A stretch of DNA of 64,000 bases from Flectonema sp. DT1601 (taxonomy: Eukaryota): the NCBI GenBank assembly GCA_964019425.1, contig OZ025798.1, positions 806,001-870,000 of the forward strand, in the 5' to 3' direction. The translations under genes and the position numbers were made by a program. Under the pieces are notes generated by a model. The model was not told where the DNA came from, made no database searches, and saw only the letters and a program-made list of their open reading frames with translations. Positions 16,619 to 56,727 of the stretch are shown one piece after another (the first letter of the stretch is position 1; each line of letters opens with the position of its first letter).

Positions 16619-17368
16619 ATGGAAGCTGTGAAGAGAAAGTGGGGACAGAAAGAAGAAGAAGACAATCGCGACAATATACATGATGATAAGGTTAGTGATT
16701 TGATAAGGCTTCTTAAGGATGTTGGTTGGAAAGCTATCCTTCATAAAGAATCAAAGAAATGGTATTTCAAAGAATTGGAACGTTTCGTAGCAGCAGAACG
16801 AGATCAGGCAACAGTAATACCTGAAAGTAAGAAAGTCTTCCACGCTTTTGACGTAACTCCCCTTAGGAAGGTAAAGGTTGTAATTATTGGTCAATTCCCT
16901 GGCTCAAAAGGAATGTGTTTTATGGATGATTACCAAACAGAAACTACAACACTACTACTCGAAGAACTCAATAGAGATATTCCTTTAGAAGAAAAACGAA
17001 AGCATTCACCATCACCCAGTACTTACATAGATTCATGGGCAAAACAAGGAGTGCTATTCTTATCATCATCCTTAACAGGAAGGGAACAGGACCCAACTGC
17101 TCATGAGAAGTGTGGTTGGCAATTATTTACAGACTCAATTCTTATGACTATTAATGCACAAAAGAGACCGGTGGTGTTCATGTTGTGGGGTGGGTTTGCT
17201 TCTAAGAAAGCGAATCTTATTGATAATTGCCTTCATTCAAAGGTTTGCTCACCGTTTCCATCTAAACTAACTCGAAAAAAATGGCTTGGATCGAAACCGT
17301 TTTCTAAGTGTAATAGCTTACTGAAATCACATGGACGTAGGGAAATAAACTGGCGCTCAGTCGGGTAG
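16619..17368 (+). CDS. family-1 uracil-DNA glycosylase homolog with substituted catalytic motifs
   Basis: W..IL..E..K.YFKEL..FV..ER, VKVVIIGQ, WAKQGVLFL, H...GWQLFTD, VVFMLWG and KPFSKCN...INW match the UNG fold. Confidence 0.85.
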   Translation: MEAVKRKWGQKEEEDNRDNIHDDKVSDLIRLLKDVGWKAILHKESKKWYFKELERFVAAERDQATVIPESKKVFHAFDVTPLRKVKVVIIGQFPGSKGMCFMDDYQTETTTLLLEELNRDIPLEEKRKHSPSPSTYIDSWAKQGVLFLSSSLTGREQDPTAHEKCGWQLFTDSILMTINAQKRPVVFMLWGGFASKKANLIDNCLHSKVCSPFPSKLTRKKWLGSKPFSKCNSLLKSHGRREINWRSVG

Positions 17369-22559: not shown

Positions 22560-23003
22560 ATGTGGAGAATAGCAAGAAGAAACACATTCAGCAGGTGGTG
22601 CACTACAAAGGCAAGCACCTTATCAGTTAAAGAGAGAGGGTTCAAACGTGAAGAAAAAGAATGGGAAGAAGTAGATGCGACAATCGACATGAGGCCACCA
22701 CTAGCAGAAGAACATTTTGAAGTCAATGTTGAGATAGCAAGGAAGAGATTAATGTACCAATCAAGCAAGAGAGGTATGTTAGAGATGGATGCTATCTTAG
22801 GTAAGTACGCAAGTGAAAACATCCTAAACTGGGATATGAACCAGCTGAAAGAATGGCATAACATACTTAGAGAATACGACATCAATCTTTATGCTTGGTT
22901 AGTCAAAAAGAGTGATTTAGACGGACTTCCTGAAAATCTAAAAAACTCATCCCTCTACACTGATCTAACATTATATGTCAATGAGCGTTACTCTTTTGAG
23001 TGA
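22560..23003 (+). CDS. SDHAF2: succinate dehydrogenase assembly factor 2 (Sdh5, flavinator)
   Basis: RKRLMYQSSKRGMLEMDAILG (RGxxE motif), D..LYAWL, and an Arg-rich mitochondrial-type presequence. Confidence 0.92.
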   Translation: MWRIARRNTFSRWCTTKASTLSVKERGFKREEKEWEEVDATIDMRPPLAEEHFEVNVEIARKRLMYQSSKRGMLEMDAILGKYASENILNWDMNQLKEWHNILREYDINLYAWLVKKSDLDGLPENLKNSSLYTDLTLYVNERYSFE

Positions 23004-24137: not shown

Positions 24138-24252
24138 GTTGACGGCAAGTGAGACTTTCTTTCATAACTTTCCGTATTATATAATTGGTGTTTTATGTTA
24201 AATTGTATTTATGATGTTAATCAGAAATATTTCTTCCTTTCAGATATCTAAG

Positions 24253-27133
24253 ATGCCGAGTAGTAAATCATCTTCTTCGAGCTCATCGGAGAGGAACTTC
24301 TCAGATGATGCGTGGAACAACCATTTGGAGCCAGCGGGTTCCTCCCTCCTGATCGCAGCGGGAGTGTTCATCTTGTTGAGCATAGCCACCACCTCCCTTT
24401 GCCTCGCTGCCCACTTCACTGATGATTTCCAGAGAATCGATGAGTACAACCCAAAGTTCTTGACCCTTTCCCAAAGATACTTCGACGGAGTGAAGGACCC
24501 GTTCATTATCTGGGACAGAAACAACAACAACACCTGCAGCTTCCTCACTATGCTCAGAGAAGCTGGAAACCTCACCGCGTGGCAGGCAGCAGAACGTGCC
24601 CAGGGAAGACCAATCATCACCTACCCATTCTGCTCATTCCACATTCCGTACACAGCAATCTGGGGAGCAATGGCCTCATCTTTGTTCGGTCTTGCCGCCG
24701 TTTGCTTCTACGCCATGAACGTTATGTCGAAGCCAAGAGGTACCGATGAGATGCACGACATCGCCAACAAGATCCATATCTCTGCCCTTGAGTTTTTGAA
24801 CCAGGAGTACACTTGGTTAGCCCCATTCGTCTTCCTTCTGTTCTGCTTCCTCCTTATCGCCATTGACGGACAGGACAACTCATGGGTTCCAGCGTCATCA
24901 GTTTCCTTCTTGTTTGGAGCCTTCCTCTCCGCTTCATGTGGATACATGGGAATGCATCTTGCCACCCAGGGTAACTGCCGTACCGCCGCCGCCTGTTTCT
25001 CATCAAAGGACCAGGGACTTGAGGAGGGTCTTGCCGTTGCGTTCCGTACCGGAGCCTGCATGGGTATCGGTGTTGTTTCATGCGGTGTCCTCGGACTCAC
25101 CCTTTCATACGCGATCTTCGGAAACGTTCAGTCCCTCGGAGGATTCGGTTTCGGAGCAAGTGCCGTCGCTCTCTTCGCTCGTGTCGGAGGAGGTATCTAC
25201 ACCAAGGCTGCTGACGTTGGAGCTGATTTGTGTGGAAAGGTTGACCACTCGCTCGCTGAGGACTCTCCAAAGAACCCTGCCACCATTGCTGACTGTGTTG
25301 GTGACAACGTTGGTGACGTTGCCGGTATGGGAGCTGACTTGTTCGAGTCATACGTCGGTTCGATCGTTGCCGCTGCCGTCTTGGGAGCTGGTGAATTCGG
25401 AGAGAAGGGAGTTGCTCTTCCATTTTACATTGCCATGATCGGTCTCGTTGTTTCCGTGTTCGGAACCCTCGGAATCAGAGTTTCAAAGGGAGCTAACGGT
25501 AAGGCCACTCTTGACCAGCTTCTTGCCGCAATGAGACTCAACATCATCGTGTCAGGTCTCTTCATTGTTGCCGGATGTGTCATCTTGTGTGTGTTCTTGT
25601 TCAGAGCTGAGAGAGACGAACTTGAGGACTTGTTCGACACCCCATGGAGACAGAAGGAACCTGGTGCAAGACTTTTGGGATGCATCGTTGTCGGTCTCGT
25701 TGTTGGTATCTTGATCGGACTTGCCACCGAGCACTTCACCTCCCACACTGAGGAACCAACCCAGTCGATCGGCCGGGCCACCGCCTTCGGACCAGGACCA
25801 GTCATCATCCAGGGTCTTGGACAGGGAATGTACTCCACCGTCATTCCATTGATCTTGATCGTCGCCGCTGTCCTCGGAGCGTTCTACCTCGCTGGATTCT
25901 ACGGAACTGCCATCACCTGTGTTGGTATGCTTTCAACCCTCGGAGTCACCATGTCTACTGATGCCTACGGACCAGTCTCTGACAACGCCGGAGGAATTGC
26001 TGAGATGGCTGAGCTTCCAGAATGGGTTCGTGAATACACTGATCAGCTTGATGCTTTGGGTAACACCACCGCTGCCACCGGAAAGGGATTCGCCAACGGA
26101 TCCGCTGTGTTGTCTGCCCTTTCATTGTTGATTGCCTTCGCCAGAATTGCCGAGATCGAGGAAGTCAACTTGTTGAGACCTGTTGTCGTCATCGGAGTCC
26201 TCATCGGATCACTGCTTCCATACGTCTTCGGAGCCATGACCATGCTTTCCGTCAACAAGGCCGCTCAGGAGATGATGTTCGAAGTCAGAAGACAATTCAA
26301 GGCCAACCCAAAGCTTCTCACTGACAAGCACTCGAGACCTGACTACAAGAAGTGTATCGAGATCTCCTGCAAGTCTTCCTTGAGAGAGATGGTTCTTCCA
26401 GGTGTTCTCGCCACCTTCTCACCGCTCGTTATCGGATTCATCTTCGGATCCCACGCTTTGGTTGGTCTCCTTGTCGGAGCGATTGCATCAGGATACCTTC
26501 AGGGAGTCATGATGTCGAACACTGGAGGAGCATGGGACAACGCCAAGAAGTGGATTGAGGCCGGAGAGTTCAAGATCAAGGGAGTTCCCCAGGGTAAGGG
26601 AACTGACTGCCACAAGGCGGCCGTCTGTGGTGACACTGTCGGAGATCCATTCAAGGACACCTCTGGACCTGCCTTGAACATCTTGATTAAGTTGATGACG
26701 AGATTCGCATTCGTGTGCGCTCCATTGTTCGCTGAAGACTGGGAATTCTGGTGGGTTGGTCTCATCCTTCTCGGAGGATCCATCGTCTTGGTCATCATCC
26801 TCAAGTTCACCATCCTTGTTGAGGATGATAAGGCGGAGGACGATGATGATGATGATGAGCCAAGCGCAAACTCCCCTGATAAGGTGTGTATTTTATTATG
26901 TTTTGATTAAAGGGATAAGAAATATACTAAGTTAGTTTTAGTATTTTAATTATATACAAAAGATTATTAATGGGAATACTAATTCACTCCAAATATAAAT
27001 TTCGTGCTCTTTTTGAGAGCAGACTTACACACATAGTAAGACAAGAGTGTTTGATAAGATTTGATATAAAATAAAAAAGTAATAATTATAACAGGACGAC
27101 GGAGAAGGCGAAAAGGGATTAATGACAAAGTAA
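24253..27133 (+). CDS. membrane pyrophosphatase copy 1 (type A; K+-dependent, Na+-PPase signature); exons 24253-26883, 27095-27133
   Basis: [15 protein letters not shown], Dx[22 protein letters not shown] and [10 protein letters not shown] motifs; terminal GT-AG intron; last exon [12 protein letters not shown]. Confidence 0.92.
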
Positions 27134-27534
27134 GTAATTAAACGTGTCAGGAACTTGTAATCCGAAGTATATTTGTTAACTTAAATTTGAAGATGCCAAA
27201 GCCGTTAGCAAATGCAAAAAGAAAAATAATTTCAATTAAATAGCTGCACCACTTGTTCACTTCCCACCCTTTCCCTTCCCTCCTTCACATTCCCAACCTC
27301 TGTTATTCACACAACTTGGCTTCGCGCCCCCTCACACACCCACACTTTGCTTTTATTTTAAACAAATCATTTGTCTCCCTTCCCTGCCCGGCTTGTGAGC
27401 TTACTGGGTGCCATGAAAGCGTCAAAACCCCTCTTTGCATCAGACGCTTGACTGTGCACAACTGCCCGGTATGCGACTCTGGAATATGGGTGAGTTTGTT
27501 TCTTATATTAATTCACCCTCATCAGATATCTAAG

Positions 27535-30314
27535 ATGCCGAGTAGTAAATCATCTTCTTCGAGCTCATCGGAGAGGAACTTCTCAGATGATGCGTGGAAC
27601 AACCATTTGGAGCCAGCGGGTTCCTCCCTCCTGATCGCAGCGGGAGTGTTCATCTTGTTGAGCATAGCCACCACCTCCCTTTGCCTCGCTGCCCACTTCA
27701 CTGATGACTTCCAGAGAATCGATGAGTACAACCCAAAGTTCTTGACTCTTTCCCAAAGATACTTCGACGGAGTGAAGGACCCGTTCATTATCTGGGACAG
27801 AAACAACAACAACACCTGCAGCTTCCTCACTATGCTCAGAGAAGCTGGAAACCTCACCGCGTGGCAGGCAGCAGAACGTGCCCAGGGAAGACCAATCATC
27901 ACCTACCCATTCTGCTCATTCCACATTCCGTACACAGCAATCTGGGGAGCAATGGCCTCATCTTTGTTCGGTCTTGCCGCCGTTTGCTTCTACGCCATGA
28001 ACGTTATGTCGAAGCCAAGAGGTACCGATGAGATGCACGACATCGCCAACAAGATCCATATCTCTGCCCTTGAGTTTTTGAACCAGGAGTACACTTGGTT
28101 AGCCCCATTCGTCTTCCTTCTGTTCTGCTTCCTCCTTATCGCCATTGACGGACAGGACAACTCATGGGTTCCAGCGTCATCAGTTTCCTTCTTGTTTGGA
28201 GCCTTCCTCTCCGCTTCATGTGGATACATGGGAATGCATCTTGCCACCCAGGGTAACTGCCGTACCGCCGCCGCCTGTTTCTCATCAAAGGACCAGGGAC
28301 TTGAGGAGGGTCTTGCCGTTGCGTTCCGTACCGGAGCCTGCATGGGTATCGGTGTTGTTTCATGCGGTGTCCTCGGACTCACCCTTTCATACGCGATCTT
28401 CGGAAACGTTCAATCCCTTGGAGGATTCGGTTTCGGAGCAAGTGCCGTTGCCCTCTTCGCTCGTGTCGGAGGAGGTATCTACACCAAGGCTGCTGACGTT
28501 GGAGCTGATTTGTGTGGAAAGGTTGACCACTCGCTCGCTGAGGACTCCCCAAAGAACCCTGCCACCATTGCTGACTGTGTTGGTGACAACGTTGGTGACG
28601 TTGCCGGTATGGGAGCTGACTTGTTCGAGTCATACGTCGGTTCGATTGTTGCCGCTGCCGTCTTGGGAGCTGGTGAATTTGGAGAGAAGGGAGTTGCTCT
28701 TCCATTTTACATTGCCATGATCGGTCTCGTTGTTTCCGTGTTCGGAACCCTCGGAATCAGAGTTTCAAAGGGAGCTAACGGTAAGGCCACTCTTGACCAG
28801 CTTCTTGCCGCAATGAGACTCAACATCATCGTGTCAGGTCTCTTCATTGTTGCTGGATGTGTCATCTTGTGTGTGTTCTTGTTCAGAGCTGAGAGAGACG
28901 AACTTGAGGACTTGTTCGACACCCCATGGAGACAGAAGGAACCTGGTGCAAGACTTTTGGGATGCATCGTTGTCGGTCTCGTTGTTGGTATCCTGATCGG
29001 ACTTGCCACCGAGCACTTCACCTCCCACACTGAGGAACCAACCCAGTCGATCGGCCGGGCCACCGCCTTCGGACCAGGACCAGTCATCATCCAGGGTCTT
29101 GGACAGGGAATGTACTCCACCGTCATTCCATTGATCTTGATCGTCGCCGCTGTCCTCGGAGCGTTCTACCTCGCTGGATTCTACGGAACTGCCATCACCT
29201 GTGTTGGTATGCTTTCAACCCTCGGAGTCACCATGTCTACTGATGCCTACGGACCAGTCTCTGACAACGCCGGAGGAATTGCTGAGATGGCTGAGCTTCC
29301 AGAATGGGTTCGTGAATACACTGATCAGCTTGATGCTTTGGGTAACACCACCGCTGCCACCGGAAAGGGATTCGCCAACGGATCCGCTGTGTTGTCTGCC
29401 CTTTCATTGTTGATTGCCTTCGCCAGAATTGCCGAGATCGAGGAAGTCAACTTGTTGAGACCTGTTGTCGTCATCGGAGTCCTCATCGGATCGCTGCTTC
29501 CATACGTCTTCGGAGCCATGACCATGCTTTCCGTCAACAAGGCCGCTCAGGAGATGATGTTCGAAGTCAGAAGACAATTCAAGGCCAACCCAAAGCTTCT
29601 CACTGACAAGCACTCGAGACCTGACTACAAGAAGTGTATCGAGATCTCCTGCAAGTCTTCCTTGAGAGAGATGGTTCTTCCAGGTGTTCTCGCCACCTTC
29701 TCACCGCTCGTTATCGGATTCATCTTCGGATCCCACGCTTTGGTTGGTCTCCTTGTCGGAGCGATTGCATCAGGATACCTTCAGGGAGTCATGATGTCGA
29801 ACACTGGAGGAGCATGGGACAACGCCAAGAAGTGGATTGAGGCCGGAGAGTTCAAGATCAAGGGAGTTCCCCAGGGTAAGGGAACTGACTGCCACAAGGC
29901 GGCCGTCTGTGGTGACACTGTCGGAGATCCATTCAAGGACACCTCTGGACCTGCCTTGAACATCTTGATTAAGTTGATGACGAGATTCGCATTCGTGTGC
30001 GCTCCATTGTTCGCTGAAGACTGGGAATTCTGGTGGGTTGGTCTCATCCTTCTCGGAGGATCCATTGTCTTGGTCATCATCCTCAAGTTCACCATCCTTG
30101 TTGAGGATGATAAGGCGGAGGACGATGATGATGAGCCAAGCGAAACCTCCCCTGACGCAGTTGTATGTACTTTATTATGTAAGAATTGAAATGGAAGTTA
30201 ATTATCTTATTATTTTTGATTAGGAGGGTTAAGAAGTTTCATCTCTTCTGTCTCACGTTTCTATTGTACTGCATTACAAATATAAAAAAATAATAACAAC
30301 AACAGGATGCCTAA
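27535..30314 (+). CDS. membrane pyrophosphatase copy 2 (type A); exons 27535-30162, 30306-30314
   Basis: Near-identical to copy 1; GTT|gtatgt...caacag|GATGCCTAA. Confidence 0.92.
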
Positions 30315-30839
30315 GATTTTATAAGTTATTATAGTACTTCGTGTTGTATAAATGTGTTTTTTGTGCCGACTTCTATGGATTGTCGGGCCACTTATTCATA
30401 TTTCGTTTTTGTAGCTCATGTTTAGTCAAAAATCTGTTACTTGTCCTCATTTCACTCCTTCCTGTCCCATCCTCCCTATTCCCTTTTCATGGTGGGTGTT
30501 TCTGACTCCCTCCTTGAAACTGTTCCCGTGGCTTGATATCTATTACCTATGGTGTTATGAGATTACAATGCCCCCGTATGAAAACGAACTTTCAGTTTGA
30601 AAAAAAAAAAAAACGAAATAAAACTCCAGCTCAGCACTTGCTGAGTTGCTGGTGAAGATCATCCTTTGTATTGTCTCCCTTGTTGTGAGAACTATTCGAA
30701 AATTGTTTTGTTCACTTGGTTAGACTTGTTCTCATATTACAGAATAATATTGTGTTATGTGGTAGTCATCAAGCTGATTATCTTTTGAGTAGTTTTTGTT
30801 TGTAATTATTAATTAATTCACCCTCATCAGATACCTAAG

Positions 30840-33594
30840 ATGCCGAGTAGTAAATCATCTTCTTCGAGCTCATCGGAGAGGAACTTCTCAGATGATGCGT
30901 GGAACAACCATTTGGAGCCAGCGGGTTCCTCCCTCCTGATCGCAGCGGGAGTGTTCATCTTGTTGAGCATAGCCACCACCTCCCTTTGCCTCGCTGCCCA
31001 CTTCACTGATGACTTCCAGAGAATCGATGAGTACAACCCAAAGTTCTTGACCCTTTCCCAAAGATACTTCGACGGAGTGAAGGACCCGTTCATTATCTGG
31101 GACAGAAACAACAACAACACCTGCAGCTTCCTCACTATGCTCAGAGAAGCTGGAAACCTCACCGCGTGGCAGGCAGCAGAACGTGCCCAGGGAAGACCAA
31201 TCATCACCTACCCATTCTGCTCATTCCACATTCCGTACACAGCAATCTGGGGAGCAATGGCCTCATCTTTGTTCGGTCTTGCCGCCGTTTGCTTCTACGC
31301 CATGAACGTTATGTCGAAGCCAAGAGGTACCGATGAGATGCACGACATCGCCAACAAGATCCATATCTCTGCCCTTGAGTTCTTGAACCAGGAGTACACT
31401 TGGTTAGCCCCATTCGTCTTCCTTCTGTTCTGCTTCCTCCTTATCGCCATTGACGGACAGGACAACTCATGGGTTCCAGCGTCATCGGTTTCTTTCTTGT
31501 TTGGAGCCTTCCTCTCCGCTTCGTGTGGATACATGGGAATGCATCTTGCCACCCAGGGTAACTGCCGTACCGCCGCCGCCTGTTTCTCATCAAAGGACCA
31601 GGGACTTGAGGAGGGTCTTGCTGTTGCGTTCCGTACCGGAGCCTGCATGGGTATCGGTGTTGTTTCATGCGGTGTCCTCGGACTCACCCTTTCATACGCG
31701 ATCTTCGGAAACGTTCAGTCCCTCGGAGGATTCGGTTTTGGAGCAAGTGCCGTCGCCCTCTTCGCTCGTGTCGGAGGAGGTATCTACACCAAGGCTGCTG
31801 ACGTTGGAGCTGATTTGTGTGGAAAGGTTGACCACTCGCTCGCTGAGGACTCCCCAAAGAACCCTGCCACCATTGCTGACTGTGTTGGTGACAACGTTGG
31901 TGACGTTGCCGGTATGGGAGCTGACTTGTTCGAGTCATACGTCGGTTCGATTGTTGCCGCTGCCGTCTTGGGAGCTGGTGAATTTGGAGAGAAGGGAGTT
32001 GCTCTTCCATTTTACATTGCCATGATCGGTCTCGTTGTTTCCGTGTTCGGAACCCTCGGAATCAGAGTTTCAAAGGGAGCTAACGGTAAGGCCACTCTTG
32101 ACCAGCTTCTTGCCGCAATGAGACTCAACATCATCGTGTCAGGTCTCTTCATTGTTGCTGGATGTGTCATCTTGTGTGTGTTCTTGTTCAGAGCTGAGAG
32201 AGACGAACTTGAGGACTTGTTCGACACCCCATGGAGACAGAAGGAACCTGGTGCAAGACTTTTGGGATGCATCGTTGTCGGTCTCGTTGTTGGTATCCTG
32301 ATCGGACTTGCCACCGAGCACTTCACCTCCCACACTGAGGAACCAACCCAGTCGATCGGCCGGGCCACCGCCTTCGGACCAGGACCAGTCATCATCCAGG
32401 GTCTTGGACAGGGAATGTACTCCACCGTCATTCCATTGATCTTGATCGTCGCCGCTGTCCTCGGAGCGTTCTACCTCGCTGGATTCTACGGAACTGCCAT
32501 CACCTGTGTTGGTATGCTTTCAACCCTCGGAGTCACCATGTCTACTGATGCCTACGGACCAGTCTCTGACAACGCCGGAGGAATTGCTGAGATGGCTGAG
32601 CTTCCAGAATGGGTTCGTGAATACACTGATCAGCTTGATGCTTTGGGTAACACCACCGCTGCCACCGGAAAGGGATTCGCCAACGGATCCGCTGTGTTGT
32701 CTGCCCTTTCATTGTTGATTGCCTTCGCCAGAATTGCCGAGATCGAGGAAGTCAACTTGTTGAGACCTGTTGTCGTCATCGGAGTCCTCATCGGATCGCT
32801 GCTTCCATACGTCTTCGGAGCCATGACCATGCTTTCCGTCAACAAGGCCGCTCAGGAGATGATGTTCGAAGTCAGAAGACAATTCAAGGCCAACCCAAAG
32901 CTTCTCACTGACAAGCACTCGAGACCTGACTACAAGAAGTGTATCGAGATCTCCTGCAAGTCTTCCTTGAGAGAGATGGTTCTTCCAGGTGTTCTCGCCA
33001 CCTTCTCACCGCTCGTTATCGGATTCATCTTCGGATCCCACGCTTTGGTTGGTCTCCTTGTCGGAGCGATTGCATCAGGATACCTTCAGGGAGTCATGAT
33101 GTCGAACACTGGAGGAGCATGGGACAACGCCAAGAAGTGGATTGAGGCCGGAGAGTTCAAGATCAAGGGAGTTCCCCAGGGTAAGGGAACTGACTGCCAC
33201 AAGGCGGCCGTCTGTGGTGACACTGTCGGAGATCCATTCAAGGACACCTCTGGACCTGCCTTGAACATCTTGATTAAGTTGATGACGAGATTCGCATTCG
33301 TGTGCGCTCCATTGTTCGCTGAAGACTGGGAATTCTGGTGGGTTGGTCTCATCCTTCTCGGAGGATCCATTGTCTTGGTCATCATCCTCAAGTTCACCAT
33401 CCTTGTTGAGGATGATAAGGCGGAGGACGATGATGATGAGCCAAGTGAAACCTCCCCTGACGCAGTTGTATGTTTTTAATTTTGTAAGCGTGACTAGGGT
33501 ATTTCATGCAAAATAAATAAAAAAGAATCTTAAAGTTAATAAACCTTGTTTCTGTTATAAGAATCACTTCAAATAATAAACAAAACAGAACTAA
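30840..33594 (+). CDS. membrane pyrophosphatase copy 3 (type A); exons 30840-33467, 33589-33594
   Basis: Near-identical to copy 2; GTT|gtatgt...aaacag|AACTAA. Confidence 0.92.
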
Positions 33595-34192
33595 AAGATT
33601 GATTGAAATTCTGCTACTTGTAATTAACTAGCGAGTAGTATACTGACTTGCTGACTAGCTGGATTAACCAATCGTACCATGACTTATTCGTTTCTATTTT
33701 ATTCTGTTTTCTACTTATGCCCTCCCCAACTCCGTGTATTAAAGACCTTGGATTTGATCTGCTATGAAGCATTAAGTCACCTCCGGTGGGTCGGTTTAAT
33801 GACTTGCGGACCAATAGGAAGGTAGCCCTAAATCTCACCTCTTCCCCATCAACTTTGTATTGTCATAACGTTACTTAGCAAAAGTTCAGTAATGTCGACT
33901 TCGTGCCCGCTCCCCTTCCAAAGAAGAAAAAAAAAGAAAAAGAAAAGGAAAAGCATCAAACGGCATAGCTCCTAGCCAGTCATCACTCTTGATTTCAACT
34001 AGAACGATCACACTCAGGAATTAGATTGTTGCTTCGACTAAAAGTTACGAGTCAACAACTATTTTCTGAGGGAGTTCGCGATGATTAGGCTAGGAGTTCT
34101 TGCAACCTTTCATTGATTTTCATTTGTTCTGCTTTGTGAATGTTTTGTGGGTTCTTCGCTTAAGTTTCTCTCACTGTCAGCTATCTGTTAAA

Positions 34193-37026
34193 ATGGGTGC
34201 CACCAAGGCCGCTAAAAAGAAGTTGCAGGAATCCAAGACGGAGATGGAGGAGCAACCAGAAGTTGTCGCAACTGAGGATGTTCCAGTTGTTGACACCAAG
34301 AAGGTCGCAGAGGAAGAGGAGGAGGAGGAGGAAGAGAGAGTCTTTGCTGACGATGCCTGGAACAACCACACTGAGCCAGCAGGAGCCTCGCTGTACGTTG
34401 CTGGAGTCATCTTCCTTCTTCTGTCATGTGGTGCCCTTGCCCTGTGCTTGCTTGCGCACTTCACTGATGACTTCCAGAGAATCGATGAGTACCACCCATC
34501 ATTCTTGACCCTTTCCCAAAGACACTTCGACGGAGTGAAGGACCCGTTCATTATCTGGGAGAGAAACAACAACTTCACCTGCACCTTCTTGACCCGTTTG
34601 AGAGAGAACAATGCCCTTACAACTTGGCACGCAACTGAAGAGCGCAATGGAAGACCAATCATCACCTACCCATTCTGCTCATTCCACGTTCCGTACACAG
34701 CAATCTGGGGAGCGATGGCCTCGGGTCTGTTCGGTCTTGCCGCCGTTTGCTACTACGCCGTGAACGTTATGTCGAAGCCAAGAGGTACCGATGAGATGCA
34801 CGACATCGCCAACAAGATCCACATCTCCGCCCTCGACTTCTTAAACCAGGAGTACTTCTGGTTGGCCCCATTCGTTGTGTTGTTGTTCTCCTTCTTGTAC
34901 GTCGCCATTGACGGACAGGACAACTCATGGGTTCCAGCGTCATCGGTTTCCTTCTTGTTTGGAGCCTTCCTCTCCGCTTCATGTGGATACATGGGAATGC
35001 ATCTTGCCACCCAGGGTAACTGCCGTACCGCCGCCGCCTGTTTCTCATCAAAGGACCAGGGACTTGAGGAGGGTCTTGCTGTTGCGTTCCGTACCGGAGC
35101 CTGCATGGGTATCGGTGTTGTTTCATGCGGTGTCCTCGGACTTGCCCTTTCATACTCGATCTTCGGAAACGTTCAATCCCTTGGAGGATTCGGTTTCGGA
35201 GCAAGTGCCGTCGCTCTCTTCGCTCGTGTCGGAGGAGGTATCTACACCAAGGCTGCTGACGTTGGAGCTGATTTGTGTGGAAAGGTTGACAACTCGCTCG
35301 CTGAGGACTCCCCAAAGAACCCTGCCACCATTGCTGACTGTGTTGGTGACAACGTTGGTGACGTTGCCGGTATGGGAGCTGACTTGTTCGAGTCATACGT
35401 CGGTTCGATTGTTGCCGCTGCCGTCTTGGGAGCCGGTGAATTCGGAGAGAAGGGAGTTGCTCTTCCATTTTACATTGCCATGATCGGTCTCGTTGTTTCC
35501 GTGTTCGGAACCCTTGGAATCAGAGTTTCAAAGGGAGTTGACGGTAAGGCCACTCTTGACCAGCTTCTTGCCGCAATGAGACTCAACATCATCGTGTCAG
35601 GTCTCTTCATTGTTGCCGGATGTGTCATCTTGTGTGTGTTCTTGTTCAGAGCTGAGAGAGACGAACTTGAGGACTTGTTCGACACCCCATGGAGACAGAA
35701 GGAACCTGGTGCAAGACTTTTGGGATGCATCGTTGTCGGTCTCGTTGTTGGTATCCTGATCGGACTTGCCACCGAGCACTTCACCTCCCACACTGAGGAA
35801 CCAACCCAGTCGATCGGCCGGGCCACCGCCTTCGGACCAGGACCAGTTATCATCCAGGGTCTTGGACAGGGAATGTACTCCACCGTCATTCCATTGATCT
35901 TGATCGTCGCCGCTGTCTTGGGAGCGTTCTACCTCGCTGGATTCTACGGAACTGCCATCGCCTGTGTTGGTATGCTTTCAACCCTCGGAGTCACCATGTC
36001 TACTGATGCCTACGGACCAGTCTCTGACAACGCCGGAGGAATTGCTGAGATGGCTGAGCTTCCAGAATGGGTTCGTGAATACACTGATCAGCTTGATGCT
36101 TTGGGTAACACCACCGCTGCCACCGGAAAGGGATTCGCCAACGGATCCGCTGTGTTGTCCGCCATCTCGTTGTTGATTGCCTTCGCCAGAATTGCCGAGA
36201 TCGAATCCGTTGACTTGTTGAGACCTGTCGTAGTTGTTGGAGTCCTCATCGGATCGCTGCTTCCATACGTCTTCGGAGCCATGACCATGCTTTCCGTCAA
36301 CAAGGCCGCTCAGGAGATGATGTTTGAAGTCAGAAGACAATTCAAGGCCAACCCAAGGCTTCTCACTGACAAGCACTCGAGACCTGACTACAAGAAGTGC
36401 ATTGACATCTCCTGCAAGTCTTCTTTGAGAGAGATGGTTCTTCCAGGTATCCTCGCCACCTTCTCACCGCTCGTTATCGGATTCATCTTCGGATCCCACG
36501 CTTTGGTTGGTCTCCTTGTCGGAGCGATTGCATCAGGATACCTTCAGGGAGTCATGATGTCGAACACTGGAGGAGCATGGGACAACGCCAAGAAGTGGAT
36601 TGAGGCCGGAGAGTTCAGGATCAAGGGATTTTCCCAGGGTAAGGGAACTGACTGCCACAAGGCCGCCGTCTGTGGTGACACTGTCGGAGATCCATTCAAG
36701 GACACCTCTGGACCTGCCTTGAACATCTTGATTAAGTTGATGACCAGATTCTCCTTCGTATGCGCTCCATTGTTCGCTGACGACTGGGAATACTGGTGGG
36801 TTGGTCTCATCCTTCTCGGAGGATCTTCCCTCTTGGTCATCATCCTCAAGTTCACTCTTCTTAACGATACCGAACCAAAGGAAGATGATGAAGAGACTGG
36901 TCCTGACTCTGAGGTATGTTAAGTTTATTATTTACTCCAACGATGTATATCATTGAGTGAAAACTTAGATATGACATCAACATTATTCACTACGTAATAC
37001 TTAGAATAATTAAACAGGACGCATAG
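34193..37026 (+). CDS. membrane pyrophosphatase copy 4 (type B, long acidic N-terminus); exons 34193-36913, 37018-37026
   Basis: Same motifs; starts [10 protein letters not shown] after ctgtcag; GAG|gtatgt...aaacag|GACGCATAG. Confidence 0.92.
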
Positions 37027-37627
37027 GAAGCGAATTACTTCAGAAAGCTACATGATGCATAATATTGTAGCTGATTGACTTAGACCAATATTGGTAGTAG
37101 GTATTGTATTGATTGATGTGAGGTGCAAAACTTTCTGATTGTATAGTGATTATGCAAACCCACTTCTTTGTGCTGTAGTTGTACTTTATGTTTCCTTCAC
37201 AATGTCAACGATGACAATCTCTCTCTACTCATTCCCCTTCTCAACTCATCACCGCGTTATGTTTATCATGTGTTTGCTGTGTTTTTAGTATCGACCCCCG
37301 CCCGTCTGCGTTTATTATGTCTCCTTCCATGTCATTGGATTGCACCTCATTAATCGTCCCGACCCACATCCGATACAGAAATAAATAGTAGTCACACAGT
37401 TCGAATATTAATTTAGTTGTATTCGGATGATTTATAATTGCGATACCACAATTGATTACAATATCTTAATCAGGTCACGTGATGTTTAAGTTCTTGTTGA
37501 TTTAGTGAGTTGCGATGTTGGCTACTAGATAGCTGTTAAGTCACTTTTAGTATAAAGGTTTACAGATTACTTGTAATATTCATATATTTATATTCACACA
37601 CTTCCCCCATCATAGTATCTACGTATT

Positions 37628-40369
37628 ATGACTGCAAAAGATAAGAACGACAGCTCGTCAAGCTCGAGCGACGAGGAAAGAGTCTTTGCTGACGATGCCT
37701 GGAACAACCACACTGAGCCAGCAGGAGCCTCGCTGTACGTTGCTGGAGTCATCTTCCTTCTTCTGTCATGTGGTGCCCTTGCTCTGTGCTTGCTTGCGCA
37801 CTTCACTGATGACTTCCAGAGAATCGATGAGTACCACCCATCATTCTTGACCCTTTCCCAAAGACACTTCGACGGAGTGAAGGACCCGTTCATTATCTGG
37901 GAGAGAAACAACAACTTCACCTGCACCTTCTTGACCCGTTTGAGAGAGAACAATGCCCTTACAACTTGGCACGCAACTGAAGAGCGCAATGGAAGACCAA
38001 TCATCACCTACCCATTCTGCTCATTCCACGTTCCGTACACAGCAATCTGGGGAGCGATGGCCTCGGGTCTGTTCGGTCTTGCCGCCGTTTGCTACTACGC
38101 CGTGAACGTTATGTCGAAGCCAAGAGGTACCGATGAGATGCACGACATCGCCAACAAGATCCACATCTCCGCCCTCGACTTCTTGAACCAGGAGTACTTC
38201 TGGTTGGCCCCATTCGTTGTGTTGTTGTTCTCCTTCTTGTACGTCGCCATTGACGGACAGGACAACTCATGGGTTCCAGCGTCATCGGTTTCCTTCTTGT
38301 TTGGAGCCTTCCTCTCCGCTTCATGTGGATACATGGGAATGCATCTTGCCACCCAGGGTAACTGCCGTACCGCCGCCGCCTGTTTCTCATCAAAGGACCA
38401 GGGACTTGAGGAGGGTCTTGCTGTTGCGTTCCGTACCGGAGCCTGCATGGGTATCGGTGTTGTTTCATGCGGTGTCCTCGGACTTGCCCTTTCATACTCG
38501 ATCTTCGGAAACGTTCAATCCCTTGGAGGATTCGGTTTCGGTGCAAGTGCCGTCGCCCTCTTCGCTCGTGTCGGAGGAGGTATCTACACCAAGGCTGCTG
38601 ACGTTGGAGCTGATTTGTGTGGAAAGGTTGACAACTCGCTCGCTGAGGACTCTCCAAAGAACCCTGCCACCATTGCTGACTGTGTTGGTGACAACGTTGG
38701 TGACGTTGCCGGTATGGGAGCTGACTTGTTCGAGTCATACGTCGGTTCGATCGTTGCAGCTGCCGTCTTGGGAGCCGGTGAATTCGGAGAGAAGGGAGTT
38801 GCTCTTCCATTTTACATTGCCATGATCGGTCTCGTTGTTTCCGTGTTCGGAACCCTCGGAATCAGAGTTTCAAAGGGAGTTGACGGTAAGGCCACTCTTG
38901 ACCAGCTTCTTGCCGCAATGAGACTCAACATCATCGTGTCAGGTCTCTTCATTGTTGCCGGATGTGTCATCTTGTGTGTGTTCTTGTTCAGAGCTGAGAG
39001 AGACGAACTTGAGGACTTGTTCGACACTCCATGGAGACAGAAGGAACCTGGTGCAAGACTTTTGGGATGCATCGTTGTCGGTCTCGTTGTTGGTATCCTG
39101 ATCGGACTTGCCACCGAGCACTTCACCTCCCACACTGAGGAACCAACCCAGTCGATCGGCCGGGCCACCGCCTTCGGACCAGGACCAGTCATCATCCAGG
39201 GTCTTGGACAGGGAATGTACTCCACCGTCATTCCATTGATCTTGATCGTCGCCGCTGTCTTGGGAGCGTTCTACCTCGCTGGATTCTACGGAACTGCCAT
39301 CGCCTGTGTTGGTATGCTTTCAACCCTCGGAGTCACCATGTCTACTGATGCCTACGGACCAGTCTCTGACAACGCCGGAGGAATTGCTGAGATGGCTGAG
39401 CTTCCAGAATGGGTTCGTGAATACACTGATCAGCTTGATGCTTTGGGTAACACCACCGCTGCCACCGGAAAGGGATTCGCCAACGGATCCGCTGTGTTGT
39501 CCGCCATCTCGTTGTTGATTGCCTTCGCCAGAATTGCCGAGATCGAATCCGTTGACTTGTTGAGACCTGTCGTAGTTGTTGGAGTCCTCATCGGATCGCT
39601 GCTTCCATACGTCTTCGGAGCCATGACCATGCTTTCCGTCAACAAGGCCGCTCAGGAGATGATGTTTGAAGTCAGAAGACAATTCAAGGCCAACCCAAGG
39701 CTTCTCACTGACAAGCACTCGAGACCTGACTACAAGAAGTGCATTGACATCTCCTGCAAGTCTTCTTTGAGAGAGATGGTTCTTCCAGGTATCCTCGCCA
39801 CCTTCTCACCGCTCGTTATCGGATTCATCTTCGGATCCCACGCTTTGGTTGGTCTCCTTGTCGGAGCGATTGCATCAGGATACCTTCAGGGAGTCATGAT
39901 GTCGAACACTGGAGGAGCATGGGACAACGCCAAGAAGTGGATTGAGGCCGGAGAGTTCAGGATCAAGGGATTTTCCCAGGGTAAGGGAACTGACTGCCAC
40001 AAGGCCGCCGTCTGTGGTGACACTGTCGGAGATCCATTCAAGGACACCTCTGGACCTGCCTTGAACATCTTGATTAAGTTGATGACCAGATTCTCCTTCG
40101 TATGCGCTCCATTGTTCGCTGACGACTGGGAATACTGGTGGGTTGGTCTCATCCTTCTCGGAGGATCTTCCCTCTTGGTCATCATCCTCAAGTTCACTCT
40201 TCTTAACGATACCGAACCAAAGGAAGATGATGAAGAGACTGGTCCTGACTCTGAGGTATGTTAGTTTTAGTTATTTATTTTCTTTGTGATATTACAAAGT
40301 TTCAAATAACTTAAAGGACGTTGTTCCTTAGTCCGATACTTAGAAAATAAAAAAAAACAGGACAAGTAG
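37628..40369 (+). CDS. membrane pyrophosphatase copy 5 (type B, short N-terminus); exons 37628-40255, 40361-40369
   Basis: Same motifs; GAG|gtatgt...aaacag|GACAAGTAG. Confidence 0.92.
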
Positions 40370-40902
40370 ATATTCACAACAACACCATCAAACGAACCTG
40401 TTGGTTAACGCTATATTGGGTATCACTTTTTGAGTAACTTATTGTGATTGCCTTTATTTTATATTTTTGTTCTTCTCTCCGCTTCTTTGTTGAAATTCCT
40501 CCCCCAAAAAGTGTTTGACATTGTTATGGTCGGCAGGTATATGCTGGGTAAACAGAGTCAACTTCATCATACTGTGTATTCATTATCTTTTATTCTCTTT
40601 TTTTGTATTCCATTATAATTCGGAGACCCTCAATCATCCTTCCGCTATGCTGCGTATTATCGCAACTCTCCTCCAGATTGTAATTGGAATAATTAAGTTC
40701 GGTAGACTTTCGTTTTTCTAGCCAAATTTATTTGGATATAAAAATGTGAAGTTAGTTTCATTTGATCATTTGTTTTATGTTGTTGTTTGCTTCATTTACT
40801 GGGAGGTTTTTGCAACCTTTCATTGATTTTCATTTGTTCTGCTTTGTGAATGTTTTGTGGGTTCTTCGCTTAAGTTTCTCTCACTGTCAGCTATCTGTTA
40901 AA

Positions 40903-43701
40903 ATGGGTGCCACCAAGGCCGCTAAAAAGAAGTTGCAGGAATCCAAGACGGAGATGGAGGAGCAACCAGAAGTTGTCGCAACTGAGGATGTTCCAGTTGT
41001 TGACACCAAGAAGGTCGCAGAGGAAGAGGAGGAGGAGGAGGAAGAGAGAGTCTTTGCTGACGATGCCTGGAACAACCACACTGAGCCAGCAGGAGCCTCG
41101 CTGTACGTTGCTGGAGTCATCTTCCTTCTTCTGTCATGTGGTGCCCTTGCCCTGTGCTTGCTTGCGCACTTCACTGATGACTTCCAGAGAATCGATGAGT
41201 ACCACCCATCATTCTTGACCCTTTCCCAAAGACACTTCGACGGAGTGAAGGACCCGTTCATTATCTGGGAGAGAAACAACAACTTCACTTGCACCTTCTT
41301 GACCCGTTTGAGAGAGAACAATGCCCTTACAACTTGGCACGCAACTGAAGAGCGCAATGGAAGACCAATCATCACCTACCCATTCTGCTCATTCCACGTT
41401 CCGTACACAGCAATCTGGGGAGCGATGGCCTCGGGTCTGTTCGGTCTTGCCGCCGTTTGCTACTACGCCGTGAACGTTATGTCGAAGCCAAGAGGTACCG
41501 ATGAGATGCACGACATCGCCAACAAGATCCACATCTCCGCCCTCGACTTCTTGAACCAGGAGTACTTCTGGTTGGCCCCATTCGTTGTGTTGTTGTTCTC
41601 CTTCTTGTACGTCGCCATTGACGGACAGGACAACTCATGGGTTCCAGCGTCATCGGTTTCCTTCTTGTTTGGAGCCTTCCTCTCCGCTTCATGTGGATAC
41701 ATGGGAATGCATCTTGCCACCCAGGGTAACTGCCGTACCGCCGCCGCCTGTTTCTCATCAAAGGACCAGGGACTTGAGGAGGGTCTTGCTGTTGCGTTCC
41801 GTACCGGAGCCTGCATGGGTATCGGTGTTGTTTCATGCGGTGTCCTCGGACTTGCCCTTTCATACTCGATCTTCGGAAACGTTCAATCCCTTGGAGGATT
41901 CGGTTTCGGAGCAAGTGCCGTTGCCCTCTTCGCTCGTGTCGGAGGAGGTATCTACACCAAGGCTGCTGACGTTGGAGCTGATTTGTGTGGAAAGGTTGAC
42001 AACTCGCTCGCTGAGGACTCTCCAAAGAACCCTGCCACCATTGCTGACTGTGTTGGTGACAACGTTGGTGACGTTGCCGGTATGGGAGCTGACTTGTTCG
42101 AGTCATACGTCGGTTCGATCGTTGCAGCTGCCGTCTTGGGAGCCGGTGAATTCGGAGAGAAGGGAGTTGCTCTTCCATTTTACATTGCCATGATCGGTCT
42201 CGTTGTTTCCGTGTTCGGAACCCTCGGAATCAGAGTTTCAAAGGGAGTTGACGGTAAGGCCACTCTTGACCAGCTTCTTGCCGCAATGAGACTCAACATC
42301 ATCGTGTCAGGTCTCTTCATTGTTGCTGGATGTGTCATCTTGTGTGTGTTCTTGTTCAGAGCTGAGAGAGACGAACTTGAGGACTTGTTCGACACTCCAT
42401 GGAGACAGAAGGAACCTGGTGCAAGACTTTTGGGATGCATCGTTGTCGGTCTCGTTGTTGGTATCTTGATCGGACTTGCCACCGAGCACTTCACCTCCCA
42501 CACTGAGGAACCAACCCAGTCGATCGGCCGGGCCACCGCCTTCGGACCAGGACCAGTCATCATCCAGGGTCTTGGACAGGGAATGTACTCCACCGTCATT
42601 CCATTGATCTTGATCGTCGCCGCTGTCTTGGGAGCGTTCTACCTCGCTGGATTCTACGGAACTGCCATCGCCTGTGTTGGTATGCTTTCAACCCTCGGAG
42701 TCACCATGTCTACTGATGCCTACGGACCAGTCTCTGACAACGCCGGAGGAATTGCTGAGATGGCTGAGCTTCCAGAATGGGTTCGTGAATACACTGATCA
42801 GCTTGATGCTTTGGGTAACACCACCGCTGCCACCGGAAAGGGATTCGCCAACGGATCCGCTGTGTTGTCCGCCATCTCGTTGTTGATTGCCTTCGCCAGA
42901 ATTGCCGAGATCGAATCCGTTGACTTGTTGAGACCTGTCGTAGTTGTTGGAGTCCTCATCGGATCGCTGCTTCCATACGTCTTCGGAGCCATGACCATGC
43001 TTTCCGTCAACAAGGCCGCTCAGGAGATGATGTTTGAAGTCAGAAGACAATTCAAGGCCAACCCAAGGCTTCTCACTGACAAGCACTCGAGACCTGACTA
43101 CAAGAAGTGCATTGACATCTCCTGCAAATCTTCTTTGAGAGAGATGGTTCTTCCAGGTATCCTCGCCACCTTCTCACCGCTCGTTATCGGATTCATCTTC
43201 GGATCCCACGCTTTGGTTGGTCTCCTTGTCGGAGCGATTGCATCAGGATACCTTCAGGGAGTCATGATGTCGAACACTGGAGGAGCATGGGACAACGCCA
43301 AGAAGTGGATTGAGGCCGGAGAGTTCAGGATCAAGGGATTTTCCCAGGGTAAGGGAACTGACTGCCACAAGGCGGCCGTCTGTGGTGACACTGTCGGAGA
43401 TCCATTCAAGGACACCTCTGGACCTGCCTTGAACATCTTGATTAAGTTGATGACCAGATTCTCCTTCGTATGCGCTCCATTGTTCGCTGACGACTGGGAA
43501 TACTGGTGGGTTGGTCTCATCCTTCTCGGAGGATCTTCCCTCTTGGTCATCATCCTCAAGTTCACTCTTCTTAACGATACCGAACCAAAGGAAGATGATG
43601 AAGAGACTGGTCCTGACTCTGAGGTATGTTAGTTTTGAGTGATAAGAATTATTGAATGCTCGTTAAAAATCTAATAAAAACTAAATATAAAACAGGACTA
43701 G
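40903..43701 (+). CDS. membrane pyrophosphatase copy 6 (type B, long N-terminus); exons 40903-43623, 43696-43701
   Basis: Same protein as copy 4 apart from the terminal exon; GAG|gtatgt...aaacag|GACTAG. Confidence 0.92.
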
Positions 43702-53697: not shown

Positions 53698-54131
53698 CAT
53701 GGTACGTTGAAGTTGTTTTCTGCATAGTTCAGTAAATCGAGTGGCGTGTTATTTATTTATTTATTTATTTATTTTATGGAATATGGTAGAGGACATTTAT
53801 CGACTTTACCATGTGATAATATGCAGTCGAAAAAGTGTGTTTAACAATTATTTTGACTGCATGTTGTACTTACATCTGTTTTGGTTCTTTTTTTAATGGT
53901 GAACTAGTTTGCCACGTTTCCAGTGAAACTCTTGATGTGGATTCGCTCCGATAGTAAGATCCGTAGAAACGAGTGGAATTATTTTAATTTTTAGTAAAAG
54001 GATGCATGTACTCAACACAAAGAGAGCATGGGCTCGTGTAACCTTACCATCTGCGTAGCTGATGACACCTTTTGGTATTTTGAAAAAAAAAACTTTTTTG
54101 TTTTTTCCACTCAGTAGATAACATTGACAAT

Positions 54132-56038: not shown

Positions 56039-56727
56039 AAAAATGAAAAAAACCATCGGGTTTAAATCGATAAACCTGCGTGCGTGTTAATGACAGCGAG
56101 AAAAAACAGCTGCTAACAACTTTTTTTTTTCCTCCGAAAATAGAAATATTACTTTCGAGAAGAATAAAACAAACGTGTTTCCAATTAATGCGATTCGATA
56201 CAATCGTTCATGTGTTGATTTCCGATGTTTCTGTTTATTGAAGAAATCAATCTCCGTAGTTCATGTATTCTTGACGATATGTGCGAAGAGAATAAAGAAA
56301 TGAAAGGGGAAAGCGAAAAAAAAAAGATAAAGAAATTCGGGGTACCAGAATATCCACAACAAATGTGGACGCGTTCGTACCCAATGTGTGTGTTATTTTC
56401 TTTTCTCTCTTTTTGTTTATTGACTGATATAAGACTCGCGTGCCAATGCCGACTGCATGTTGTACTTACATCTGTTTTTTTTCTTTTTTTAATGGTGAAC
56501 TAGTTTGCCACGTCTCCATTGAAACTCTTGATGTGGATTCGCTCCGATAGTAAGATCCGTAGAAACGAGTGGAATTATTTTAATTTTTAGTAAAAGGATG
56601 CATGTACTCAACACAAAGAGAGCATGGGCTCGTGTAACCTTACCATCTGCGTAGCTGATGACACCTTTTGGTATTTTGAAAAAAAAAACTTTTTTGTTTT
56701 TTCCACTCAGTAGATAACATTGACAAT

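Follow-up and report, generated by a model that had tools for sequence, protein, structure and literature searches.

The window analysed here is a stretch of 64,000 nucleotides from the diplonemid Flectonema sp. DT1601 (GenBank assembly GCA_964019425.1, contig OZ025798.1, positions 806,001 to 870,000 of the forward strand). It carries a tandem array of six genes for membrane-integral pyrophosphatases (mPPases) which, judging from their sequences, probably specify a K+-stimulated pump of the cell membrane that expels Na+ at the expense of inorganic pyrophosphate (PPi). The array, proposed in an initial annotation made from the DNA letters, is real. The window's listing of open reading frames (ORFs) holds six uninterrupted frames of 878-951 residues, all on the + strand and spanning positions 24211-43632, and each of the six scores about 775 bits with NCBIfam profile NF001960. 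All six also pass the threshold of TIGR01104, so that the names of these two profiles are uninformative as to the ion. In both copies scanned, Pfam PF03030 was found with an E-value of 1e-236, its alignment (787 bits) covering positions 2-644 of the 645 of the profile, which identifies a membrane-integral pyrophosphatase.

The genes belong to two types. Type A comprises copy 1 (24253..26910, 885 residues from the ATG that matches copies 2 and 3, with a further in-frame ATG at 24211), copy 2 (27535..30189, 884 residues) and copy 3 (30840..33479, 879 residues), the query for searches and for the structure model. Type B comprises copy 4 (34193..36922, 909 residues, with a long charged N-terminus), copy 5 (37628..40264, 878 residues, with a short N-terminus) and copy 6 (40903..43632, 909 residues counted from the ATG equivalent to that of copy 4, in a frame open from 40777). 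Within a type, 8-15 nucleotides differ over the 2508 of an 836-codon core, all silently, without a single amino-acid difference. Between types there are 61 amino-acid differences over the same core, concentrated in residues 19-135 (31 differences) and sparse in residues 291-630 (five). The gene amplification suggested at the outset is thus borne out. The five spacers between the ORFs are unequal in length (512-713 nucleotides) and unrelated, apart from a similarity limited to 44-105 nucleotides ahead of some copy starts. Genes so alike, set among spacers so different, suggest that the array is old and that its copies have been homogenised by gene conversion; an echo of the assembly process is ruled out by the same spacers. 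Both N-terminal types are also present among the transcripts of Flectonema neradi.

Codon use sets the array apart. The two copies measured have an effective codon number of 35, whereas values of 44-54 are found for 12 neighbouring ORFs. A skew towards codons ending in C or T had been noted; it holds for C (0.41 in the mPPase copies, 0.12-0.21 in the neighbours) but not for T (0.24 against 0.25-0.39). At four-fold sites G stays at 0.08 while C rises to 0.33. The flat level of G rules out GC-biased conversion as the cause of the bias, which fits better with selection for translation, and high expression, deduced from the same bias by the initial annotation, is likely.

It is the residues of the membrane core that suggest sodium. 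A helix-6 motif of 13 residues and a string of 10 residues around position 12.46 are kept in all six copies. Glu6.53, at the Na+ site, is encoded at 25345..25347 and Ala12.46, the mark of the K+-dependent type, at 26071..26073 (copy 1, + strand), exactly where they had first been placed. The Na+-type pattern Glu6.53, Ala12.46, Ser5.43 and Gly6.57 is present in six copies out of six (in copy 1, A607 is 12.46, G369 is 6.57 and S303 is 5.43). Lys12.46 and Thr12.49 of the K+-independent H+-PPases are absent, with Ala (six of six) and Gly in their place. Glu5.43 of the Flavobacterium-type K+-dependent H+-PPases is replaced by Ser, and Glu6.57 of the plant-type H+-PPases by Gly, the Glu being at 6.53 instead. 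The 12 Asp/Glu and three Lys of the active site (as listed in PMC6882861) are intact in every copy, in line with the claim that the motifs binding Mg and PPi are preserved, and so are the residues of the coupling funnel and R5.50, D6.50, D11.50, K12.50 and K16.50. The Na+-site set D6.50/E6.53/S6.54/N16.46/K16.50 is complete, with no Glu at 6.57 or 5.43, and these five residues, together with S5.43, are invariant across all readable diplonemid and red-algal rows.

The gate, by contrast with these conserved sets, departs from the non-polar one (12.54, 12.64, 16.54, 16.57) of other mPPases. All six copies have Asn12.54 (26095..26097 in copy 1, + strand), equivalent to mung bean Ile545 (PMC4814480), where nearly all other mPPases have Ile, and Arg16.54 (26701..26703, + strand), equivalent to mung bean Val746 and non-polar in most mPPases (PMC6882861). 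A hydrophobic gate is a conserved trait of mPPases at large, described as semi-conserved (PMC6882861), and no formal criterion of the Na+-PPases. With the proviso that the rows counted are not independent, many being near-copies, Asn12.54 is found in 35 of 35 readable diplonemid proteins, in 12 of 12 of the red-algal group and in one of 450 readable others, and this single exception is itself placed in the red-algal group; at 16.54, all 34 readable diplonemid proteins have Arg or Gln, a state seen in none of 458 readable others.

The model of copy 3, built from an alignment of 91 rows, has a mean predicted local distance difference test score (pLDDT) of 91, and its residues 130-835 superpose on the mPPases of Vigna, Thermotoga and Pyrobaculum (Z 42-48, root-mean-square deviation (rmsd) about 2 Å), the next rows having a Z of 7. 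This modelled fold is silent on the ion transported. It includes two predicted helices additional to the 16 canonical ones, one N-terminal (residues 30-55, 30927..31004, + strand), followed by a loop of some 75 residues ahead of canonical helix 1, and one C-terminal (residues 833-855, 33336..33404, + strand). Both are hydrophobic, with 19-residue means of 2.3 and 2.7 respectively, and given the canonical topology both termini of the protein would be cytosolic. A search of the ESM Atlas with residues 15-160 gave no usable match, which says nothing on novelty or absence.

The family is not a peculiarity of one organism. The closest database match is from Flectonema neradi (87%), followed by relatives from Diplonema japonicum and D. 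papillatum (66-68%), then by Rhynchopus humris, R. euleeides, Namystynia, Artemidia and an entry with prefix Hpha, read as Hemistasia (56-64%). It is thus present in at least eight named diplonemid species, also in several copies, which rules out a recent transfer into a single species. The motif DLFES is found in all of the best 120 matches. Next after diplonemids come red algae (Porphyridium, Pyropia, Timspurckia), prasinophytes (Bathycoccus, Mantoniella, Chloropicon) and stramenopiles (Vaucheria, Cantina), with further matches among many proteins of 730-830 residues from short contigs and among bacteria named Dehalococcoidia and SAR202. Many Glu6.53/Ala12.46 enzymes of 730-960 residues (P0026-P0056, P0209-P0232; P0211 is from Cantina marsupialis) form several subgroups of the eukaryote-rich clade described below. 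This distribution suggests that Na+-type mPPases are widespread in marine protists, beyond the prasinophytes and diatoms already in print. When a plant-type query was used to look for a diplonemid vacuolar enzyme, none of the 120 matches listed was named as diplonemid, most being without an organism name. Among diplonemids, the hemistasiid-type entries (P0016, P0017, P0019-P0023) make two paralogue groups with Gln16.54 and a long, coiled-coil-like C-terminal tail that is absent from the window copies. A diverged paralogue, Diplonema papillatum KAJ9468941.1 (P0208, with an accession number five away from that of an intact copy) and P0354, is without most catalytic residues: it has lost the acidic loop of helices 5-6, D11.50, N12.43, K12.50, D15.61 and D16.35 while keeping the gate Glu and the full membrane core, and is a candidate pseudo-enzyme or regulatory subunit of a dimer.

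Five trees (238, 74, 32, 32 and 84 rows; the 74-row tree was made with IQ-TREE from 654 columns) agree on the placement of the diplonemid enzymes. Reference groups had been gathered by motif, from 80 of 120 bacterial Ala12.49 loci, 12 of 20 named matches of a plasmid collection and 80 of 120 plant-type metagenome loci; 124 of the 252 loci gave a usable protein, and rows shorter than 640 residues were left out with four fragments. The plant-type group was later anchored with five named land plants, and names are carried by only three of the seven rows labelled 'red' and five of the 19 labelled 'other eukaryote'. In the 74-row tree diplonemids are held together at 100/100, diplonemids with the red-algal group at 100/99 (99 under a mixture model, in a quick tree), and these with prasinophytes, stramenopiles and other rows at 100/98. 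This eukaryote-rich clade is nested among bacterial Glu6.53/Ala12.46 enzymes (99/97). The plant-type, E5.43-type, K+-independent and Pelosinus/Peptococcaceae groups fall in other parts of the tree, the latter two joined at its base, and the Persicobacter E5.43 proteins are apart from the diplonemid clade.

A tree was the check named by the initial annotation, and in it the diplonemid enzymes group neither with the plant-type ones nor, by proxy, with those of Carboxydothermus type: the approximately unbiased (AU) test on 32 rows rejects the former association with p 1.7e-4 and the latter with p 4e-10. The proxy is the Pelosinus/Peptococcaceae group, a candidate for the Carboxydothermus type by its Ala12.49 and its position as sister to the K+-independent enzymes. 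Ala12.49 has been given as a mark of the Carboxydothermus-type H+-PPases (PMC10897367), yet mPPases of Acidimicrobiia and Coriobacteriia (L002-L080), with Glu6.53, Ala12.46 and Ala12.49, fall outside this candidate group, so that Ala12.49 alone is no marker of the type. While these two hypotheses were set beforehand, four others were chosen after the trees had been seen: diplonemids with the Bacteroidales-type enzymes (p 1.5e-3), with the nearest bacteria (p 2e-5), or with other eukaryotes but without the red algae (p 6e-4), and red algae with prasinophytes (p 3e-3) are all rejected. The stem branches to the diplonemid/red-algal lineage are long (0.19-0.33). The sisterhood is nevertheless backed by characters that stand outside any long-branch argument, namely the extra N-terminal helix with its loop, an alignable first helix, Asn12.54 and the extra C-terminal helix, the last being also present in some other eukaryotic rows. 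As sisters of red-algal genes inside a eukaryote-rich clade, the diplonemid mPPases were not taken straight from a bacterium, and the direct bacterial origin implied by the initial annotation finds no support. The last gene common to diplonemids and red algae would reflect a transfer between eukaryotes, in either direction, or an ancient duplication with heavy loss elsewhere. As for contamination of the assembly by bacterial DNA, it is ruled out by the eukaryotic neighbours of the array (ATG7, NTF2-RRM, kinesin) together with matching diplonemid transcripts.

How do these enzymes compare with known systems? They share with the prokaryotic K+-stimulated Na+-PPases (Thermotoga maritima TmPPase, PDB 4AV3/5LZQ; Methanosarcina mazei; EC 7.2.3.1, KEGG K15987) the fold (Z 42-48, rmsd 1.6-2.2 Å over 590-670 residues), the full catalytic set, E6.53/S6.54/D6.50/K16.50, A12.46/G12.49 and the lack of Glu at 6.57 or 5.43. 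They differ from them, at about 41% identity, in having Asn16.46 rather than Asp (Asn being the commoner state), Asn12.54, Arg16.54, Phe16.57 and Cys6.36, as well as two extra predicted helices and a 75-residue external loop; they are nuclear and in six tandem copies. In Na+-PPases hydrolysis depends on Na+, and H+ is carried only below 5-10 mM Na+. The predicted Na+-PPases of prasinophytes and diatoms (Ostreococcus, Bathycoccus) have the same signature and fall in the same eukaryote-rich clade, Bathycoccus being about 50% identical, but keep Ile12.54 and a non-polar 16.54, do without the extra C-terminal helix and belong to phototrophs. Database entries from red algae (Porphyridium aerugineum, Pyropia yezoensis, Timspurckia oligopyrenoides), to which no function is assigned, share, beyond the characters named above, several helix motifs, yet at 43-46% identity they differ by two large insertions on the outer side, following helices 6 and 8, Ala5.40, and Val, Thr or Ser at 16.54. 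The Diplonema papillatum copies are orthologous (66% identity), with the same gate residues and several copies with neighbouring accession numbers, on contigs of shared length; their database name, 'putative sodium pump', is automatic only. The vacuolar K+-dependent H+-PPases of plants and trypanosomes (Vigna radiata VrPPase, PDB 4A01) share the fold, catalytic centre, A12.46 and N16.46, but have their Glu at 6.57, not 6.53, and form a separate clade. From the candidate Carboxydothermus-type K+-dependent H+-PPases, distant in the tree, the copies differ by Gly12.49 where those have Ala, the signature being otherwise shared between that type and the Na+-PPases. With the Bacteroides vulgatus-type Na+,H+-PPases they share E6.53, A12.46 and the 10-residue string around 12.46. 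The four signature residues of that type, reportedly listed by Luoto et al. in 2013, are absent, in line with the apparent lack of its Asp and Met hallmarks noted at the outset: at none of the four positions do the copies (F, L, G, F) match a Parabacteroides protein (T, F, D, M). Na+-regulated Na+,H+-PPases of the Clostridium leptum type have been named as a further type (PMC11210485). They make a separate clade, and their H+ transport continues at higher Na+.

The cell membrane enters the argument by way of a relative. In Paradiplonema papillatum, three proteins annotated as mPPase 'putative sodium pump' (DIPPA_04508, DIPPA_15538 and DIPPA_15540) were detected by mass spectrometry (PMC12697944, S1 Data). 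Unsupervised K-means clustering puts them in cluster 2, which also contains two Na+/K+-ATPase alpha entries, a protein of the Na+:neurotransmitter-symporter family and DIPPA_16504, the tag on which outlines the cell (PMC12697944). The three likely belong to the mPPase family of the window, to judge from similar E-values to vacuolar enzymes (about 1e-149 to that of T. brucei; 1e-147 for the window protein to that of Vigna). There is no other mPPase among the 20 places with 'pyrophosphatase' in the rows of S1 Data listed, and the main text of that paper has no match to 'PPase', 'pump' or 'pyrophosphat', the three proteins not being discussed there. By analogy with Paradiplonema, the mPPases of the window would thus be located in the cell membrane.

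At that place, PPi from biosynthesis would be hydrolysed at the cytosolic face, with one cation expelled per PPi. Together with the Na+/K+-ATPase, the resulting Na+ gradient might support Na+-coupled uptake and the salt balance of the cell at a lower cost in ATP. The array and its C-ending codons would raise the dosage of a slow pump, while gene conversion would keep the coding cores alike. Hydrolysis of PPi yields 20-25 kJ/mol (PMC11593465). By simple arithmetic this amounts to some 210-260 mV for each charge moved, which would suffice to drive out one Na+ if a gradient typical of seawater is assumed. D. papillatum has both a sodium/glucose cotransporter and the PPi-dependent enzyme PFP (PMC8611851). 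Bathycoccus, the enzyme of which was published as a probable Na+-PPase, falls in the same eukaryote-rich clade.

Several points weigh against a sodium pump. Three gate-side positions are non-canonical (Asn12.54, Arg16.54, Phe16.57), and I12.54, V16.54 and L16.57 are among the sites where Ala uncouples hydrolysis from pumping (PMC6882861); the mung bean mutants I545A (12.54) and L749A (16.57) hydrolyse PPi normally, do not pump, and still rescue the growth of Arabidopsis (PMC4814480). Substitutions at such sites are the main reason why signature should not be equated with function, and with the altered gate H+ transport, dual transport or loose coupling may apply. The initial annotation, sound on the signature itself, had overlooked these polar or charged changes at 12.54 and 16.54, which make it less safe to deduce the ion from the signature. 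H+ pumping evolved several times from Na+-PPases, once with Glu kept at 6.53 (PMC6882861), and there is no residue pattern from which the ion could be told in every mPPase subclass (PMC10897367). In the 74-row tree the next clade out is the Bacteroidales type, with dual Na+,H+ transport (100/98), and subfamily labels follow motifs and kinship of genera, no experimentally characterised enzyme being among the tree rows. As to location, the three DIPPA proteins were hand-picked cell-membrane markers, which makes their support vector machine label circular and leaves the K-means cluster as the independent evidence (PMC12697944), and their identifiers are not matched to NCBI accessions. A literature search, covering few subscription papers, found no published transport assay of any eukaryotic Na+-PPase.

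These points open the way to other readings. The diplonemid/red-algal lineage may have changed its ion, Asn12.54 and Arg/Gln16.54 below Lys16.50 causing it to pump H+, alone or together with Na+, with Glu6.53 kept. This would parallel independent shifts in the Carboxydothermus type and in the dual pumps, and it would fit the near-exclusive presence of these residues in the lineage and its long stem branches. An acidifying role may moreover be vacant, although the want of a separate vacuolar-type mPPase in the Paradiplonema rows listed is weak evidence. The invariance of the whole Na+-site set within the lineage, the failure to match any of the four Bacteroides-type positions and co-fractionation with Na+-handling proteins of the cell membrane, not with lysosome clusters, nevertheless make a change of ion rather unlikely. 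The same gate changes might, instead, be a natural case of uncoupling: loosely coupled or uncoupled enzymes would mainly clear cytosolic PPi at the membrane, with little pumping. The mung bean mutants are in favour of this, V16.54A being listed likewise (PMC6882861), as is the assignment of the two soluble PPases in the Paradiplonema rows listed to glycosome and mitochondrion, not to the cytosol. Yet a pure hydrolase need not keep the ion-gate residues D6.50, E6.53, S6.54, N16.46, K16.50 and S5.43 invariant, and six highly biased copies of a protein of 16-18 helices are costly next to a small soluble enzyme. The mutant data, furthermore, are for Ala in an H+ enzyme, not for Asn or Arg in a diplonemid context, and we regard uncoupling as improbable.

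A Na+-type enzyme might also work on internal membranes (endosome, food vacuole or a contractile-type compartment), sequestering Na+, or operate in reverse, making PPi from an inward flow of Na+. The three Paradiplonema proteins are labelled 'Cell membrane|Lysosome/Vacuole' by DeepLoc, differential-centrifugation profiles separate cell membrane from endocytic membranes imperfectly, and mPPases are reversible (PMC9408878). Sharing a K-means cluster with the Na+/K+-ATPase and a tag-validated surface protein goes against an internal site, while reversal at 1:1 coupling needs a sodium-motive force above about 210-260 mV, so that either variant seems highly improbable. An outward Na+ pump of the cell membrane is the reading that we retain as the most probable. 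A more elaborate scenario, which is conceivable though on the whole doubtful, would have diplonemids take a Na+-type PPase from a red alga, rebuild its exit gate (Asn, Arg/Gln), amplify it in tandem and rely on it as a second primary Na+ pump of the surface, one that needs no ATP, instead of the vacuolar H+-PPase that the related kinetoplastids have.

The signature of a Na+-PPase in a eukaryote is a partly anticipated idea. Probable orthologues in Ostreococcus, Bathycoccus and diatoms were predicted in 2020, with validation 'under study' (PMC7438732, Fig. 8), which disposes of the uniqueness among eukaryotes implied by the initial annotation; the prediction for algae was repeated (PMC8034386), and a diatom Na+-PPase occupies one table row elsewhere (PMC3237598). 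Reviews of 2022-2024 treat Na+ transport by mPPases as prokaryotic (PMC11593465, PMC9408878). In the literature covered, with few subscription papers or figures, we found no discussion of the diplonemid/red-algal clade, its origin or its gate. Apparently new, within the same limits, are the diplonemid-wide amplification, the surface co-fractionation, the red-algal sisterhood, the altered gate and the two extra predicted helices. Na+-pumping PPases have so far been measured only in bacteria and archaea. Diplonemids are abundant heterotrophs of the ocean, and one species is genetically tractable, with proteomic evidence at hand, which makes energisation of a eukaryotic surface by PPi and Na+ directly testable. 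Asn12.54 with Arg/Gln16.54, at positions that control coupling, is a natural experiment for the disputed mechanism of mPPases, and the red-algal sisterhood, if it reflects a true transfer, would mean that a primary pump has passed from one eukaryote to another.

Some features of the genes and of their surroundings deserve mention. Each copy has GTRTG directly ahead of its ORF stop and an A-rich ACAG 72-211 nucleotides downstream, in phase 0, which suggests a small terminal intron at the 3' end of each gene. For copy 1 this predicted phase-0 intron lies over the ORF stop at 26884..27094, with a GTRTG donor and an A-rich ACAG acceptor, and its predicted equivalents in copies 2-6, likewise on the + strand, are at 30163-30305, 33468-33588, 36914-37017, 40256-40360 and 43624-43695. 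As ACAGRA occurs nine times in the 4083 nucleotides of spacer, the acceptor motif alone is weak evidence for an intron. Of 13 sequencing runs listed, seven contain part of the window, all as contigs, and the two recorded as RNA share 0.11 and 0.07 of its words; in four runs aligned to 36000-37700 no splice junction was seen. Pyrimidine-rich AG sites that resemble trans-splice acceptors lie upstream of the mPPase starts.

Nearly all long ORFs of the window are on one strand, and every gene recognised by Pfam is a + strand gene, an arrangement like that of polycistronic clusters in euglenozoans. The Pfam-recognised neighbours are eukaryotic (ATG7, NTF2-RRM, a Roc GTPase, kinesin and GH35 beta-galactosidases). 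Upstream of the array, genes for a uracil-DNA glycosylase superfamily protein (16619-17368) and for the Sdh5 flavinylation factor (22560-23003) flank ATG7, with no evident link to the mPPases. Positions 3725-5878 encode a protein of 717 residues with a Roc/Ras-like GTPase domain and a low-complexity C-terminus. Three tandem GH35 beta-galactosidase genes lie at 51775-58635. The middle one is split by a frameshift into overlapping ORFs (54132-54980 and 54953-56038), and its 3' part is identical over 300 nucleotides to the third copy, which suggests a sequence error or a pseudogene.

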